Positions 8,823 through 50,417 of a stretch of DNA of 64,000 nucleotides are shown one piece after another. The stretch is taken from sequence record PV467749.1. One strand, 5' to 3'. The position numbers and the translations under genes are program-made. Source of the stretch: a phage. Positions within the stretch are counted from its first letter, which is position 1. The number at the start of each line of letters is the position of its first letter. The notes under the pieces are model-generated. The model was given only the letters and a program-made list of their open reading frames with translations, did no database searches and was not told where the DNA came from.

Positions 8823-9400
8823 TATAGCACCTTATCCATTGCTGCATTTAATGCTTTTAAACGATCAACATTCAAAGTATTGAAGATGTACGTTCCTAAA
8901 ATGTGGAAATCGAACTGGTTCTTTTTGTATGTGTGATAAATTAAACTACAAAAAACAACAGTACTAAGAACCTCTTCCGGTATAACGGTGCTCATCTGAA
9001 ACAGTTCTTCATCAACTGTACTTGATTCTGGATTGATAGCTTTTAACTCATACTCTTTATCACCGAATAGTACTTTAATATTATATAAAACACCAACAGT
9101 ACTAATATGAAATGGGTGGTGTGAAAAACTTCCATCATCATTAATTTGGATATCGGATCTAATCTCGCACTCTTCATTACTTTTACTATTATTTTTTACA
9201 ATACAAATATTCCTGGCACCAGAAATAGTAAGAATACCGTGATCGTAATATTCTTTGGACATACATTTAGATGAAAATGACACATCACGAATGAGGTAAT
9301 GTTTGTTAATTTCTTTGGCACTACCAACAATGTGTAGCATCTTTGTACTGATATCATATAGCTGTTGGTGTCTGGCTGTCATATAACTATAAGCGTTCAT
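8822..9400 (-). CDS. family A (FQ-motif) paralog
   Basis: 192 aa; motif DEELFQMST. Confidence 0.55.
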   Translation of the reverse strand: MNAYSYMTARHQQLYDISTKMLHIVGSAKEINKHYLIRDVSFSSKCMSKEYYDHGILTISGARNICIVKNNSKSNEECEIRSDIQINDDGSFSHHPFHISTVGVLYNIKVLFGDKEYELKAINPESSTVDEELFQMSTVIPEEVLSTVVFCSLIYHTYKKNQFDFHILGTYIFNTLNVDRLKALNAAMDKVL

Positions 9401-9971
9401 ATGTATCCTTGATGTTTTTGATTGCCGTGTGTAGCTCTTTTAATGTATCGGATTCACAGTTAATGAACTTACTATACATTACCAATTCACCAGTGTCAAT
9501 AGCTTTTGCAGTTTCATAGCAAAGCATCATGTACTCAAACTCCTTGAAGTTGTCAAGTACTGATCTCTGGAAAATGTATGCTTCACGAATGTCTTCACTT
9601 TGATCTAGTTCTGGTGGAATTTCCAAATATGTATCATTCTCTACGTCATCAAAATTAGATTCAACAATTCGATTAATATCTTCGTGTAAAGCATTGACAA
9701 ATATCATGTTTGGAGTAATGGAACCGATTTGCTCACTATGCCTTGATGTGCGGATATACATTGCCATAGTATCCCATGAACCTTTTTTCGTCGTTCCATA
9801 ATCGTAAACTTTATAAGACTCCAGTACTACTGAACCAAAACGATATGGTGATTTGCATTCAACTTTAAGACGATAATTTCCAATAGGCTCATGTTCAGTA
9901 ATGTTGTGCTTTTCAGATAGTTCTGCAATGTCATGCATCAATTTCATAATTTGAATATGTTCAGCTTGCAT
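9387..9971 (-). CDS. family A (FQ-motif) paralog
   Basis: 194 aa; motif EAYIFQRSV. Confidence 0.5.
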   Translation of the reverse strand: MQAEHIQIMKLMHDIAELSEKHNITEHEPIGNYRLKVECKSPYRFGSVVLESYKVYDYGTTKKGSWDTMAMYIRTSRHSEQIGSITPNMIFVNALHEDINRIVESNFDDVENDTYLEIPPELDQSEDIREAYIFQRSVLDNFKEFEYMMLCYETAKAIDTGELVMYSKFINCESDTLKELHTAIKNIKDTYERL

Positions 9972-44447: not shown

Positions 44448-44582
44448 GTAAAACATTATACTTGATTCTAAGTACAATGCAAGTACTTTTTAAAAATAGT
44501 TTTCAGTACTAGCCACCAGTAAACAATAGATACATTTATGCACCCGGTGGGCTGATTTGTTTCTATGCGTATATAATAGCAA

Positions 44583-44619: not shown

Positions 44620-44769
44620 TTAAACTTCTTTCGGGTTGCGATATGTGATAGCGTTCGGGTACATTTGTTTAATGTTATTCCATGCCTGGTTAACATTATA
44701 ACCACTTGATCGAATCAGTTGGTTATTACCGACACCTTGAAACACTACTTCAAATAAGAATTCTTTCAT
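44620..44769 (-). CDS. hypothetical small protein (below ORF-track cutoff)
   Basis: 49 aa ORF read by hand (MKEFLFEVVFQGVGNNQ...); ATGA overlap with stop of upstream gene. Confidence 0.35.
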   Translation of the reverse strand: MKEFLFEVVFQGVGNNQLIRSSGYNVNQAWNNIKQMYPNAITYRNPKEV

Positions 44770-44939
44770 GCTTTCACCTCGCTATCTGCTTTGCCTTTAC
44801 GCCAGGCCGTTGCTAATTGTTCGCGTTGCCATAAGTCGAGTGATACGTAAAGTTTTGCATTATCACCCTTCGGATATTCGCCAGTAGTACCAATCCGATA
44901 AAACAGATCTTTCAGTACTGTTAATTCTACCTGGACCAT
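44766..44939 (-). CDS. hypothetical small protein
   Basis: 57 aa from ATG 44937-44939; track ORF extended through promoter. Confidence 0.45.
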   Translation of the reverse strand: MVQVELTVLKDLFYRIGTTGEYPKGDNAKLYVSLDLWQREQLATAWRKGKADSEVKA

Positions 44940-45026
44940 TATACTTTCCTCTTTGTTCGGAGGGGAACTATTCCCCTTCCGATATAAAACATTATACACT
45001 TTATTCAGTACTGTGCAAGTACTTTT

Positions 45027-46011: not shown

Positions 46012-46269
46012 TTATCTCATAGATCTATGCCAACAATTACGCGGATCTCTTTTAAAAGTACTATCATGATCCTCCTGGCAAGTAATACAATACATGCACC
46101 CTATAACGGCCTGGCGTCGATTCTCAGGGATTTTATCGCCGCAGTCGAGGCAATGTACTAGTGATTCTCTTTGTGCGTTAATTTGCTTTCTAGCGTGGTT
46201 AACGGCGGCCTGAATCACTGCGTTAATCTCGTCTTGCTCGGCCCCATCTTTCGCGAATCCTACTGCCAT
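46012..46269 (-). CDS. TraR/DksA-family C4 zinc-finger protein
   Basis: 85 aa; CLDCGDKIPENRRQAVIGCMYCITCQE matches C-x2-CG-x2-IP-x2-RR and C-x2-CQ. Confidence 0.6.
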   Translation of the reverse strand: MAVGFAKDGAEQDEINAVIQAAVNHARKQINAQRESLVHCLDCGDKIPENRRQAVIGCMYCITCQEDHDSTFKRDPRNCWHRSMR

Positions 46270-46430: not shown

Positions 46431-46503
46431 TTGATCAAGAATTGATCAGAATTATACTCCTTATGCTAAATTGATCCAGTACTTTTTTGATCATTTATTG
46501 ATC
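46431..46503. repeat. GATC / TGATCA cluster
   Basis: Five GATC sites within 73 bp inside a 290-bp non-coding leader. Confidence 0.5.
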
Positions 46504-46605
46504 GATATTATATAGTTACATTTGTGCACCCTATGGGTTAGTGACGTTCTCGTCTTGATGTAAGTATTATGCCAGTACTGGCATTGTATGTCAACAATTA
46601 TTTTC

Positions 46606-46643
46606 AAAAAAAGAAAAAGCCCACCAGCGTTAACCAGTGGGCT
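46606..46643 (-). terminator. intrinsic terminator
   Basis: Hairpin AGCCCAC..GTGGGCT 46618-46643 with long U-rich tail on minus RNA. Confidence 0.45.
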
Positions 46644-46649
46644 ATAATC

Positions 46650-46793
46650 TTACATCTTGCGGATAATCTTAACAGTATCTTTCACCGATTTACCGTTTTG
46701 CTGACATTGCTCGATCATTGCGTATTGTTCTGCGGTCAGATCCTCGCCAGTTTTTGCCAGTACTGCATCGATGAATGAATCCAGTGCGATCAT
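46650..46793 (-). CDS. hypothetical small protein (below ORF-track cutoff)
   Basis: 47 aa ORF read by hand (MIALDSFIDAVLAKTGEDL...), terminator immediately 3'. Confidence 0.4.
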   Translation of the reverse strand: MIALDSFIDAVLAKTGEDLTAEQYAMIEQCQQNGKSVKDTVKIIRKM

Positions 46794-47535: not shown

Positions 47536-47617
47536 GATTTGTTTCCTTATTACCAGGGGAAACCGTTTCCCCTTTCGATGTAAAACATTATACGCTTATC
47601 AGGAAGTAATGCAAGTA

Positions 47618-48085
47618 CTATTTCACGTTAATTTCAAAGTACTGCTCTTTGATGTTTTCCTGTTGGTAAATCTCGTTTAATGCTTTAAGATCTAAAACCT
47701 GTTTACCTGCTGCCTGAATATACTTTTTAAGAGTCGCTAACAGCTTCTCAGGCGTGTTTGTAGTCTTACGTGTTGGGATCTTATCGTGCCCCATAGCGTA
47801 ATACTGCTTACGTGCTATAGTACTGATAACACTGCGGTACGGTTCCATGATCAGCTTGTCTGTGTATTCGTCGCTATCCCCAAACTTCATACCGTGGATC
47901 GCAAAGGTCATCATCATGCGGTCGTTATCGCGGATATTGTGGGGGCAGTCGGCAAGCTCGCGAGTCAGTGACATAGTGATCCCCACGTCGCCACCCAGCG
48001 GTAAAGGTCGGGCGATAAAGAAACCGTTAGGGAATACTTTCAGGAAGTTTTCTTGAACTGCTGCGACGAATTCGATGCTATTCAT
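47618..48085 (-). CDS. hypothetical protein
   Basis: 155 aa; PeSL cassette upstream. Confidence 0.55.
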   Translation of the reverse strand: MNSIEFVAAVQENFLKVFPNGFFIARPLPLGGDVGITMSLTRELADCPHNIRDNDRMMMTFAIHGMKFGDSDEYTDKLIMEPYRSVISTIARKQYYAMGHDKIPTRKTTNTPEKLLATLKKYIQAAGKQVLDLKALNEIYQQENIKEQYFEINVK

Positions 48086-48300
48086 AATTCATTTCCTTAA
48101 TTAGTGGGGGAAACCGTTTCCCCTTTCGATGTAAAACATTATACGCCTATTGAGATAGTTTGCAAGTACTTTTTAAAAATAGTTTTCAGTACTCAATACT
48201 TATATAATAGATACACTTCCGCACCCTGTGGGCTAGTGAGCTATCTCTCAATGAATATATAATAGCAAAATGGCTGACCGAAGTCAACCACTTTTTTCAT

Positions 48301-48435
48301 TTATTTTTTAGCTTTAAGTACTGCGGCCTTTCGCGTCATGCCTTGCTTGATGTACTCCTTTACTTTCGCTTTTTTAGCGTTTACCTTGTCTGCTTTCGTT
48401 TTAGGAGTACTGTAAATTATACCGTTAGGATTCAT
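48301..48435 (-). CDS. hypothetical small basic protein (below ORF-track cutoff)
   Basis: 44 aa Lys-rich ORF read by hand; start overlaps stop of 48436-48525. Confidence 0.35.
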   Translation of the reverse strand: MNPNGIIYSTPKTKADKVNAKKAKVKEYIKQGMTRKAAVLKAKK

Positions 48436-48525
48436 TTAAATCACCATAAAGAATAGATAGGTTACTAACAATGCCGCGATCAATGCACCGACCAGGGCCG
48501 AACTATAGTAAGCTAATGATTTCAT
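48436..48525 (-). CDS. hypothetical hydrophobic peptide
   Basis: 29 aa (MKSLAYYSSALVGALIAALLVTYLFFMVI); ATGA overlap with upstream gene. Confidence 0.3.
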   Translation of the reverse strand: MKSLAYYSSALVGALIAALLVTYLFFMVI

Positions 48526-48674
48526 TTTTTAGCCTGAAAATAATGTTTAATTTGAGCGGCGGTCAGTGCACAATTACGCAGGAAGTTTTCTGTATAACTT
48601 TTGCGAGTACTGAAAGAGAATTGACCTTTGCCGTTACCGATAGTAACATCAAACCGAGCGTTGTATTGTTTCAT
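48522..48674 (-). CDS. hypothetical small protein
   Basis: 50 aa from ATG 48672-48674 (AGGAG SD); first gene of a coupled trio. Confidence 0.45.
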   Translation of the reverse strand: MKQYNARFDVTIGNGKGQFSFSTRKSYTENFLRNCALTAAQIKHYFQAKK

Positions 48675-48755
48675 TTTGATTCTCCTGTTATTGGGGAGAA
48701 TCATTTCTCCCCTCTATGTAAAACATTATACGCGTTTAAAAACTAATTACAAGTA

Positions 48756-48902
48756 CTATTTTTTAGATTTACGCAAACTTTCTACCATCTCAGGAGTAAG
48801 GCCCGGCGGGTAGGAAACTACTTCATCAACGAAACGTAATGGGAATACCCCATCTAAGGTTGAACGTGCTTTCTTGTTAGTACTCTTTTTTGATGCTTTC
48901 AT
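48756..48902 (-). CDS. hypothetical small protein (below ORF-track cutoff)
   Basis: 48 aa ORF read by hand; PeSL cassette upstream. Confidence 0.4.
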   Translation of the reverse strand: MKASKKSTNKKARSTLDGVFPLRFVDEVVSYPPGLTPEMVESLRKSKK

Positions 48903-48971
48903 TTCATATTCCTTAATTAGTGGGGAGAATCATTTCTCCCCTTCATGTAAAACATTATACGCGTTTAAAAA

Positions 48972-49181
48972 CTAATTACAAGTACTATTTGAAAGTAAAT
49001 GCTCATACGCTGCATTAACTACGTTTTCAATAACCGACTGTACAGAAAGATCCCCCACGTCCTGGCTATAGTAGAAATTGCTTACAGTGGTGTCATCGTA
49101 TGCAAATACTTTACCAGGTACGGCATCAATCACATACATATTAACCTTTAAGATGTCGATCTTATCCTGTACAGTAAGCAT
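48972..49181 (-). CDS. hypothetical small protein
   Basis: 69 aa. Confidence 0.5.
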   Translation of the reverse strand: MLTVQDKIDILKVNMYVIDAVPGKVFAYDDTTVSNFYYSQDVGDLSVQSVIENVVNAAYEHLLSNSTCN

Positions 49182-50273: not shown

Positions 50274-50417
50274 TTACTTACTTTTTGCTTTCTTTGCTGC
50301 TTCCACCTGGTCGGCCCATTCTTTACCCCATACTTGTAAATTATAATGGTACTGGCAAAGAGCAACGCCCCGCTTTAAACCAGTAATAGATTTCTGACCA
50401 CATTGACAAGTTTTCAT
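50274..50417 (-). CDS. hypothetical small Cys-containing protein (below ORF-track cutoff)
   Basis: 47 aa ORF read by hand (MKTCQCGQKS...); PeSL cassette upstream. Confidence 0.4.
   Translation of the reverse strand: MKTCQCGQKSITGLKRGVALCQYHYNLQVWGKEWADQVEAAKKAKSK

Follow-up and report, generated by a model that had tools for sequence, protein, structure and literature searches.

Three very short open reading frames (ORFs) follow one another on the minus strand of the phage record PV467749.1, within the stretch of 64,000 nucleotides analysed here (the window). The locus raises the question of whether these ORFs are genes, whether they are expressed as one unit, and what the almost entirely hydrophobic product of the middle one could do. 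The original prediction had described consecutive ORFs of 50, 29 and 44 aa, coupled to one another through overlapping stops and starts. All three were found, and their coordinates are listed in Table 1 with those of the associated signals. On comparative sequence evidence, they are best read as real, conserved genes of one transcription unit. Furthermore, a probability of roughly 80% is given to the reading that they form a self-contained tricistronic early cassette, composed of a promoter, a hairpin, three cistrons and a terminator.

Table 1. Features of the three-gene locus (window coordinates)
Feature	Position	Strand	Description
Sigma-70-type promoter	48725..48752	minus	TTGTAA-16 nt-TATAAT; 10/12 consensus matches; followed by conserved GTTTTACAT
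5'-UTR stem-loop	48693..48712	minus	GGGGAGAA-ATGA-TTCTCCCC; 8-bp G/C stem; -13.9 kcal/mol, z = -3.0
ORF1 Shine-Dalgarno	48682..48686	minus	AGGAG; 7 nt 5' of ATG
ORF1	48522..48674	minus	50 aa from ATG at 48674; basic (+7), soluble
ORF2	48436..48525	minus	29 aa, MKSLAYYSSALVGALIAALLVTYLFFMVI; start overlaps ORF1 stop
ORF3 Shine-Dalgarno	48440..48445	minus	GGTGAT; within last ORF2 codons; -9.1 kcal/mol
ORF3	48301..48435	minus	44 aa, MNPNGIIYSTPKTKADKVNAKKAKVKEYIKQGMTRKAAVLKAKK
Intrinsic terminator	48267..48294	minus	12-bp stem, UUCG loop, then U-run; -15.9 kcal/mol, z = -5.3

Phage identity and position of the locus

By nucleotide identity, the window belongs to Asteriusvirus, the PBECO4/121Q/G17-like jumbo coliphages. 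The region was 86-96% identical to 36-42 Asteriusvirus records, including PBECO4, 121Q, G17, phAPEC6, WPEC3 and JP4, and the records containing both terminal repeats matched it twice. The locus lies inside the approximately 21-kb direct terminal repeat of the phage. In vB_Ec-M-J it is within the annotated direct terminal repeat of 21,525 bp, and in fEgEco12 it occupies positions 9090-9495 of a 20,993-bp repeat, for which restriction digests gave confirmation (PMC13070987). The Asteriusvirus orthologues of the locus, at 86-96% nucleotide identity, possess the same three genes with the same junctions, promoter and terminator.

Coding constraint on the three frames

The window was aligned with 19 relatives, giving a set of 20 genomes, and the frames of ORF1, ORF2 and ORF3 were all intact in 19 of them. 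The remaining record, CMSTMSU, is labelled UNVERIFIED_ORG and contains 1-nt indels at scattered places, one of which falls in the A-run at the ORF1 stop. Variable sites at the first, second and third codon positions numbered 4, 2 and 15 in ORF1, 5, 2 and 8 in ORF2, and 10, 8 and 25 in ORF3, and clustering at third positions was seen only in the proposed frames. The in-frame pN/pS values were 0.09, 0.20 and 0.26, respectively, whereas the two shifted frames gave 1.0-2.5 together with many stops. When every distinct column allele was counted once, the synonymous excess had binomial P values of 1e-9 for ORF1, 0.0098 for ORF2 and 2e-7 for ORF3; the ORF2 value comes from 17 distinct changes only, in genomes that are related and recombining.

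All eight amino-acid changes in ORF2 were conservative (K2R, S3T, L4F, L11V, V12I, G13V, L15M and T22A), and its length was 29 aa in 19 of the 20 genomes. The indels of ORF3, of 6 and 15 nt, were in frame, and a 1-nt difference in its terminal A-run changes only ...AKK* to ...AKNK*. These comparisons make a very strong coding case for ORF1 and ORF3 and a good one for ORF2, which has few substitutions behind it. An open frame of 29 codons is not by itself rare in such AT-rich DNA. Translation of the trio is proposed here from the sequence. In the literature searched on Asteriusvirus, neither transcript nor ribosome-profiling nor proteomic data were found for the trio; for the genus as a whole, the search turned up no transcriptomes, promoter maps or proteomics of small proteins.

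It could be supposed that the minus-strand ORFs arose by chance and that any real gene of the locus lies on the plus strand. The UE-S1 record does annotate a plus-strand ORF of 91 aa, UES1_246, antisense to ORF1 and ORF2, but this frame had a pN/pS of 2.17, its start codon read ACG instead of ATG in nine of the 19 analysed genomes, and JP4 and SHEFM2K had stops within it. Moreover, it extends through the promoter and the hairpin. A second plus-strand ORF, of 25 aa (48338-48415), lies antisense to ORF3 and had no stops and a pN/pS of 0.33. However, this low value is the expected shadow of ORF3, because the antisense frame shares its third positions, and the ORF has neither a Shine-Dalgarno sequence nor a promoter. 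Every promoter cassette of the region faces the opposite way, and ORF1 and ORF3 match established protein families. A plus-strand origin of the signal is thus hardly credible, and the minus-strand ORFs are retained as the genes.

Transcription and translation signals

The 5'-UTR stem-loop sits between the promoter and the ribosome-binding site of ORF1. Across the 20 genomes, the ORF1 leader formed a duplex with the anti-Shine-Dalgarno sequence of between -7.4 and -9.2 kcal/mol, compared with a mean of -2.7 for the background. ORF2 has no Shine-Dalgarno sequence, and its duplex of -2.5 kcal/mol in every genome equals the background. Upstream of ORF3, the 22 nt preceding the ATG were identical in 20/20 genomes, including an invariant GGTGAT; about 4% of background 22-mers score -8 kcal/mol or lower. 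The intrinsic terminator begins 7 nt past the ORF3 stop. Its equivalent is also annotated in the G17 record.

The overlaps that had been proposed at both cistron junctions were found at one. ORF1 and ORF2 share a true 4-nt ATGA, whereas at the second junction the TAA of ORF2 and the ATG of ORF3 abut with 0 nt between them. Both junctions were invariant across the 20 aligned genomes, and RNA at the two sites folded no better than shuffled sequences (z = -0.06 and 0.46). Translational coupling is a plausible proposal for part of the trio. ORF2, lacking a Shine-Dalgarno sequence, should depend on coupling, which is its sole obvious route to translation. In contrast, ORF3 has its own strong and invariant site, so it need not be coupled.

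From these signals we infer both the early timing of the trio and its coupling. Host RNA polymerase with sigma-70 would initiate at the near-consensus promoter and produce a single early mRNA, bearing a stable G/C stem-loop at its 5' end and the intrinsic terminator at its 3' end. Ribosomes would load at the strong AGGAG of ORF1, ORF2 would be reached through termination-reinitiation at the ATGA overlap, and ORF3 would be translated by reinitiation in addition to direct loading at GGTGAT. In the related phage CBB, RpoD-like/sigma-70 promoters of the early region are concentrated before short hypothetical genes, which the authors read as early host-takeover genes (PMC5259590).

Annotation status and small genes

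The trio was said to have been missed by the list of ORFs, which may be only partly accurate. Under a mechanical first-start rule, ORF1 becomes an ORF of exactly 60 aa (48522..48704) that begins at an ATG within the hairpin loop, so a list with a 60-aa minimum could have included ORF1 with a wrong start. The true start is placed at 48674 because of the family alignments and the AGGAG Shine-Dalgarno sequence. A metagenome gene call, P0001, gives the same wrong start.

The three genes have already been deposited as hypothetical proteins; their absence from an ORF list is an effect of the gene-calling threshold, in a genus that has been sampled well, and their description is no discovery. All three coding sequences (CDS) are annotated in at least six GenBank records, namely WPEC3, JP4, SD-15_S21, phAPEC6, SD-1_S14 and SHEFM2K. 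The corresponding locus names include gp521c/520c/519c in phAPEC6, WPEC3_CDS041/040/039 and JP4_CDS0281-0283, with gp286 and gp287 for ORF1 and ORF3 in 121Q. ORF1 and ORF3 are annotated and ORF2 omitted in 121Q, G17, PBECO4, BF17, Turkey5 and vB_Ec-M-J. The slurp01 and UB records annotate ORF1 alone, and those of EC.P1 and Ecwhy_1 have no member of the trio among their CDS. In addition, the 29-aa ORF2 is included in an ENA metagenome gene call.

The further claim, that genes of this region are undercounted, is correct for a 60-aa list, since 8 of the 18 annotated CDS in the 5 kb around the locus in WPEC3 are shorter than 60 aa. The four other ORFs below 60 aa that had been named all exist. At 94-100% amino-acid identity, three of them (46650-46793, 48756-48902 and 50274-50417) had annotated counterparts among the CDS of WPEC3, G17, EC.P1 and one metagenome contig. 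The fourth (44620-44769) belongs to another promoter-hairpin cassette, where it comes second, joined through ATGA to a first cistron of 57 aa. For calibration, close to half of the true genes found in early and terminal-repeat regions of jumbo phages have fewer than 60 codons. A 60-aa ORF filter loses such genes or gives them wrong starts, and permissive callers put false CDS over conserved non-coding motifs.

Predicted proteins of ORF1 and ORF3

ORF1 matched phrog_7119 over its full length (E = 1.3e-27), its residues 1-50 aligning with positions 3-52 of the 52-position profile, and the SHEFM2K annotation assigns the same family to it. The phrog_7119 family is present in 183 phage records, and the invariant residues of its core are I12, N14, G15, G17, F21 and Y27. 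The phrog_7119 proteins of rV5-like phages (Vequintavirus) and CR3/CR9-like phages (Certrevirus) have the same core as ORF1. Unlike the 50-aa ORF1, however, they are 59-65 aa long with N- or C-terminal extensions, and their genes are not followed by a hydrophobic mini-ORF.

ORF1 is predicted by structure modelling to be a small, possibly SH3-like beta-barrel with two short helices. In Pfam, no family was found above its curated cut-off; ORF1 gave a sub-threshold SAM_SMF hit of 20.5 bits (cut-off 27), and a SAM_SMF reading was dropped because the AF2 model is a beta-barrel. A sequence-profile search of the PDB returned insignificant matches only (E >= 0.036). A homeodomain or helix-turn-helix recognition helix, considered from the likeness of LNEAQIKIWF to LTAAQIKHYF, received no support from the predicted fold.

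ORF3 is lysine-rich as had been predicted, with 30% K+R and a net charge of +11. It matched phrog_29913 over its full length (E = 3.3e-29), with residues 1-44 aligning with positions 1-44 of the 45-position profile. By tblastn, a word-indexed search and an all-library HMMER scan, it was restricted to Asteriusvirus; apart from its own cluster, the HMMER scan recovered only two long proteins, probably of low complexity. ORF3 has length variants of 39-47 aa, and two mosaic alleles exist for its N-terminal half. The C-terminal half is conserved (AKVKEYIKQGMTRKAA.LKAK), with a synonymous excess of P = 5e-6. The predicted structure is a disordered N-tail followed by a basic helical hairpin (H14-30, H35-43; pLDDT 81). 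A 51-aa ORF of CR9 (MNPHK...GHSKATARAMAKK) was considered as a relative of ORF3 on the basis of 27% identity and a pairwise E of 3e-4. It stands two genes after the ORF1 homologue of CR9 and, as the library-wide search did not recover it, is kept as an unconfirmed lead.

The predicted hydrophobic peptide ORF2

The description of the 29-aa ORF as almost entirely hydrophobic was borne out by a GRAVY of +1.78. The peptide starts with MK and continues as a hydrophobic stretch of about 20 residues up to the C-terminus; the best 19-residue window (residues 11-29) reaches the C-terminal end. A membrane peptide had been suggested as possible, and the hydropathy is in favour of it, with a KD value of 2.69 for that window and an unweighted Hessa sum of -3.35 kcal/mol. 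These values point to membrane insertion, and ORF2 is probably a single-pass inner-membrane peptide with its N-terminus inside and no extramembrane tail. It was found at 89.7% identity or more in 35 records. No Pfam match was obtained for ORF2 and no PHROG family, the best PHROG match (E = 0.005) being compositional, and tblastn gave no match outside Asteriusvirus.

KdpF and TisB are bacterial peptides of around 30 aa, of the small single-pass membrane or type I toxin kind. ORF2 resembles peptides of this type in its size (about 29 aa), its one hydrophobic helix and its short charged N-terminus. It differs from type I toxin peptides in having no antisense RNA partner and in its context of a phage early operon. 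The likeness is offered as an analogy for how ORF2 might act, with no claim of membership.

The 87 nt between ORF1 and ORF3 could instead be an untranslated spacer with an accidental open hydrophobic frame, in which conservation would reflect an RNA-level or regulatory constraint, such as carrying the Shine-Dalgarno sequence of ORF3. That sequence does lie inside ORF2, which itself has neither a Shine-Dalgarno sequence nor a PHROG family. In addition, the selection statistics of ORF2 are modest (P = 0.0098), and roughly every second deposited annotation leaves it out, as do those of G17, 121Q, PBECO4, BF17, Turkey5 and vB_Ec-M-J. However, the frame fills the gap exactly, from ATGA to TAA|ATG. 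It was free of stops and frameshifts in 19 genomes, its eight amino-acid changes were all hydrophobic or polar swaps of a conservative kind, and its pN/pS was 0.20 in frame against 1.0-2.4 off frame. The shuffle-like folding at the junctions also speaks against a constraint on RNA structure. Moreover, a hydrophobic mini-ORF occupies the same position in the metagenomic contigs L024 and L025 and in the phages K64-1 and phiKp_21, despite diverged nucleotides. An untranslated spacer is consequently considered unlikely, and the reading of ORF2 as a translated gene is preferred.

ORF2 lies in the -1 frame of ORF1, and their junction falls on CTAAAAAATGA. ORF1 and ORF2 might therefore also be made as a membrane-anchored fusion of about 79 aa, by -1 frameshifting or transcriptional slippage at the A6 run (GCT AAA AAA TGA) right before the ORF1 stop. 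This A-run was invariant in 19 genomes. However, two points weigh against a fusion: T AAA AAA departs from the canonical X XXY YYZ heptamer, and a run of six A is short for transcriptional slippage. RNA folding found no stimulatory structure downstream. Furthermore, the corresponding junctions of K64-1 (AAATAATG) and L024 (TAA A TTG) involve different frames and no slippery run, indicating that a fusion is not a conserved feature. Such a product is very improbable, and ORF1 and ORF2 are treated as separate proteins. As a whole the locus looks ordinary, with nothing that shows an unusual mechanism.

Comparison with promoter-early stem-loop cassettes

The promoter of the trio belongs to a repeated type. 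In the window, 29 copies of TATAATGTTTTACAT-like -10/start motifs were counted where 1.3 would be expected, and every copy was on the minus strand. Other cassettes have, at the same position, different yet complementary G-run/C-run stems (repeat families D2 and D4). Five repeat families, D1-D5, were recognised in the window.

Similar units have been described as PeSLs (promoter-early stem-loop) in the T4-type phages RB49/phi1, T4/PST and KVP40/nt-1. In a PeSL, a GGGG...CCCC stem-loop accompanies a sigma-70 promoter with an AT-rich region upstream of it, and such units recur in front of numerous small ORFans (PMC2839356, PMC4122927). The cassette of ORF1-ORF3 shares with PeSLs a strong sigma-70-like promoter, its AT-rich upstream region and a G-run/C-run stem-loop, and in both the unit recurs ahead of many small ORFans in a plastic part of the genome. 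Common to both, and published as a signature of PeSLs, are also gene indels that distinguish close relatives and whose crossover falls within a shared cassette. For instance, a gene of 155 aa (47618-48085) is present in the window and absent from G17 and JP4; identical 37-nt promoter-hairpin segments flank it, and the crossover took place in the shared TATAATGTTTTACATCGAAAGGGGAAACGGTTTCCCC.

There are also clear differences. The present host is a Rak2-like jumbo phage (Asteriusvirus) and not a member of the Tevenvirinae, whereas PeSLs belong to the hyperplastic regions of T4-like myoviruses. Unlike in PeSLs, the stem-loop here follows the -10 element, lying within the 5' UTR and lacking a U-tract, and the units end at separate canonical intrinsic terminators. 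Moreover, the present cassette carries three cistrons and a PeSL carries one. The cassette is thus PeSL-like in its working and falls outside the described members. No literature linking PeSLs to Asteriusvirus-type phages was found.

An Rfam scan over the whole window gave no family at the gathering score. A repeated motif following the terminators (CCCAYNGGGTGC-N4-RTGTAWCTAT) was tried as a structured RNA and rejected. Its single-sequence fold had z = 0.13, and in an alignment of six copies the 3' half was invariant and the 5' half varied without compensation.

Possible pairing of ORF1 with a hydrophobic peptide and possible role

A comparable layout was found in the Klebsiella phage K64-1 (Alcyoneusvirus). 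Its ORF1 homologue gp441, 54-56% identical to ORF1, is followed in the same coupled arrangement by gp442, a hydrophobic ORF of 38 aa (GRAVY 2.2) whose ATG overlaps the gp441 stop (TAATG). A third gene, gp443, is joined to gp442 by an ATGA overlap. The K64-1 trio is likewise preceded by a sigma-70-like promoter and by the repeated upstream motif that the ORF1-ORF3 cassette has. In contrast, gp443 is a protein of 101 aa unrelated to ORF3, and K64-1 lacks the GGGG...CCCC hairpin. The same hydrophobic ORF and arrangement, unannotated, were present in phiKp_21.

The contigs L024 and L025 encode an ORF1 homologue of 72% identity, and a hydrophobic ORF of 33 aa starts 1 nt past its stop. Over 23 aa, this peptide and ORF2 shared 39% identity (pairwise E = 2e-4); their C-terminal ends are ...LFFTLI and ...LFFMVI, respectively. 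A gp443-like gene of 102 aa follows the 33-aa ORF. The K64-1 peptide gp442 did not align with ORF2 or with the L024 peptide and had no detectable sequence similarity to either, so the linkage in K64-1 could be analogy rather than homology. In addition, the ORF1 homologues of rV5, CR9 and three other metagenomic contexts had no hydrophobic mini-ORF as a neighbour. Together with the dissimilarity of gp442, this indicates that the pairing is restricted to certain lineages, and as an association it is suggestive only.

Judged from its context, the trio most likely has an accessory early host-modulation function, although this is a guess. ORF1 and ORF2 may cooperate at the inner membrane, for instance to bring about superinfection exclusion or to modulate a host membrane protein, which is likewise guessed. 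Confidence in any specific role for the cassette is low. A broader proposal is rather doubtful, namely that ORF1 and the micro membrane peptide are the two components of a conserved early module. In it, ORF1 would be tethered to the inner membrane, or activated there, by the peptide, and lineage-specific third genes would tune the module. If it were true, the module would be common to at least three jumbo-phage lineages: Asteriusvirus, the K64-1-type Alcyoneusvirus and an uncultured lineage. It would, for example, exclude superinfecting phages or disable a host membrane machine, and the tuning genes would be the basic 44-aa ORF3 here and the 101-aa protein elsewhere. With its persistent link to a widespread family of small proteins, a membrane peptide of 29 aa can reasonably be considered as a candidate factor for host takeover or exclusion.

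Promoter Cassettes and the Repeated Motif

Promoter cores resembling TATAATGTTTTACAT numbered 29 in the window and shared one orientation, on the minus strand (~23.7-57.2 kb, mainly 38-57 kb). Two types were present, TTGCAAGTACT...TATAATGTTTTACAT and TTGACAAAGTAT..CAGTACTGTATAATAGTTTACAT, and most cores were followed by a G/C hairpin with a stem of variable sequence and preserved complementarity.

In addition, the motif CCCAYNGGGTGC-N4-RTGTAWCTAT occurred seven times in the window, against zero expected. It lay with an intrinsic terminator on one side and the next promoter cassette on the other, and was preceded by an invariant TTGAC-N17-TGnTAtaAT, an extended -10 promoter-like element whose -35 falls within the terminator stem. 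The conservation of the motif reached Klebsiella phage K64-1 (L020), a member of a different genus. Moreover, variable sites were sparsest across the 20 aligned genomes (12%, vs 14-41% in the ORFs) in the 102 columns 3' of ORF3, the last gene of the trio, which comprise the terminator, the motif element and flanking sequence. Rfam gave no match for the motif, and no covariation was found in it.

Coordinates of the features discussed, in the window unless another sequence is named
Feature	Position	Strand
Repeated motif	48207-48232	-
Repeated motif, further copies	38504, 41256, 44526, 46512, 54410	-
Repeated motif, opposite strand	54367	+
Repeated motif, K64-1 counterpart	L020 ~745-775	
TTG-start CDS	48186-48287	-
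TTG-start CDS in relatives (JP4_CDS0284, WPEC3_CDS038, SHEFM2K M2K_0191, one SD-15_S21 CDS)		
TTG-start CDS, K64-1 gp440	L020 682-804	
Other ORFs with the same 'peptide', examples	44490-44582, 46491-46607	
UE-S1 antisense CDS	L009 344-547	
ORF3 codons 1-22	48369-48435	-
CR9 51-aa ORF	L022 1419-1574	
Second coupled pair	44620-44939	-
57-aa ORF	44939-44766	-
49-aa ORF	44769-44620	-
DksA/TraR-type gene	46012-46269	-
155-aa gene	47618-48085	
155-aa gene with both cassettes	47540-48165	-
48-aa gene	48756-48902	
48-aa gene with both cassettes	48670-48992	-

Gene Calls and Anomalous Records

Permissive gene callers placed a 33-40-aa TTG-start CDS (...LAHRV..CIY...) across the terminator and the repeated motif. 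Its 'peptide' reappeared at every recurrence of the DNA motif, and these CDSs are probably false genes. The antisense CDS annotated over ORF1 and ORF2 in the relative UE-S1 failed the coding tests. In CMSTMSU (L019), several 1-nt homopolymer indels, which are probably sequencing errors, broke all three trio ORFs.

Coupled Genes and ORF3 Alleles

A second ATGA-coupled pair consisted of a 57-aa ORF followed by a 49-aa ORF. The former probably begins at the ATG that follows GAGGAAAG rather than at the GTG at 44999; the latter was followed by a terminator of the TTGACTCCGGTCAG type, as at the trio. The same early region encodes an 85-aa DksA/TraR-type zinc-finger protein (CLDCGDKIPENRRQAVIGCMYCITCQ). 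PF01258 was present in its metagenome orthologue, and the protein is a plausible candidate modulator of host RNA polymerase.

For the N-terminal half of ORF3 there were two sharply different alleles, NGIIYSTPKTKADKVNAKK vs TGLNYKSCSAFTKANKANARK, with a 6-nt indel. Recombination inside ORF3 is indicated by these sequences, since the alleles showed a mosaic distribution among otherwise close genomes. Furthermore, a 51-aa ORF of CR9 (MNPHKLLITAYPNKGDKRHTLDRLTRYYQEAGHSKATARAMAKKELRFGKN), two genes downstream of that phage's ORF1 homologue, gave an end-to-end alignment with ORF3 at a pairwise E of 3e-4 and 27% identity, and is possibly a very distant relative.

Cassette-Bounded Genes

On either side of the 48-aa gene stood a 94-nt cassette; the two copies were nearly identical and 229 nt apart. 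This single-gene cassette may also have been gained, lost or replaced, as suggested by the sequence 5' of the trio promoter, which differs in SD-15, SD-1, PBECO4, 121Q and TH47 (alignment columns 1-25). The 155-aa gene (phrog_21515) had a promoter-hairpin cassette on each side, with an identical 37-nt segment common to both; G17 and JP4 lacked the gene and carried a single hybrid cassette instead. This is a modular indel like those of the PeSL (promoter-early stem-loop) cassettes of T4-like phages, but in a jumbo phage outside that group.
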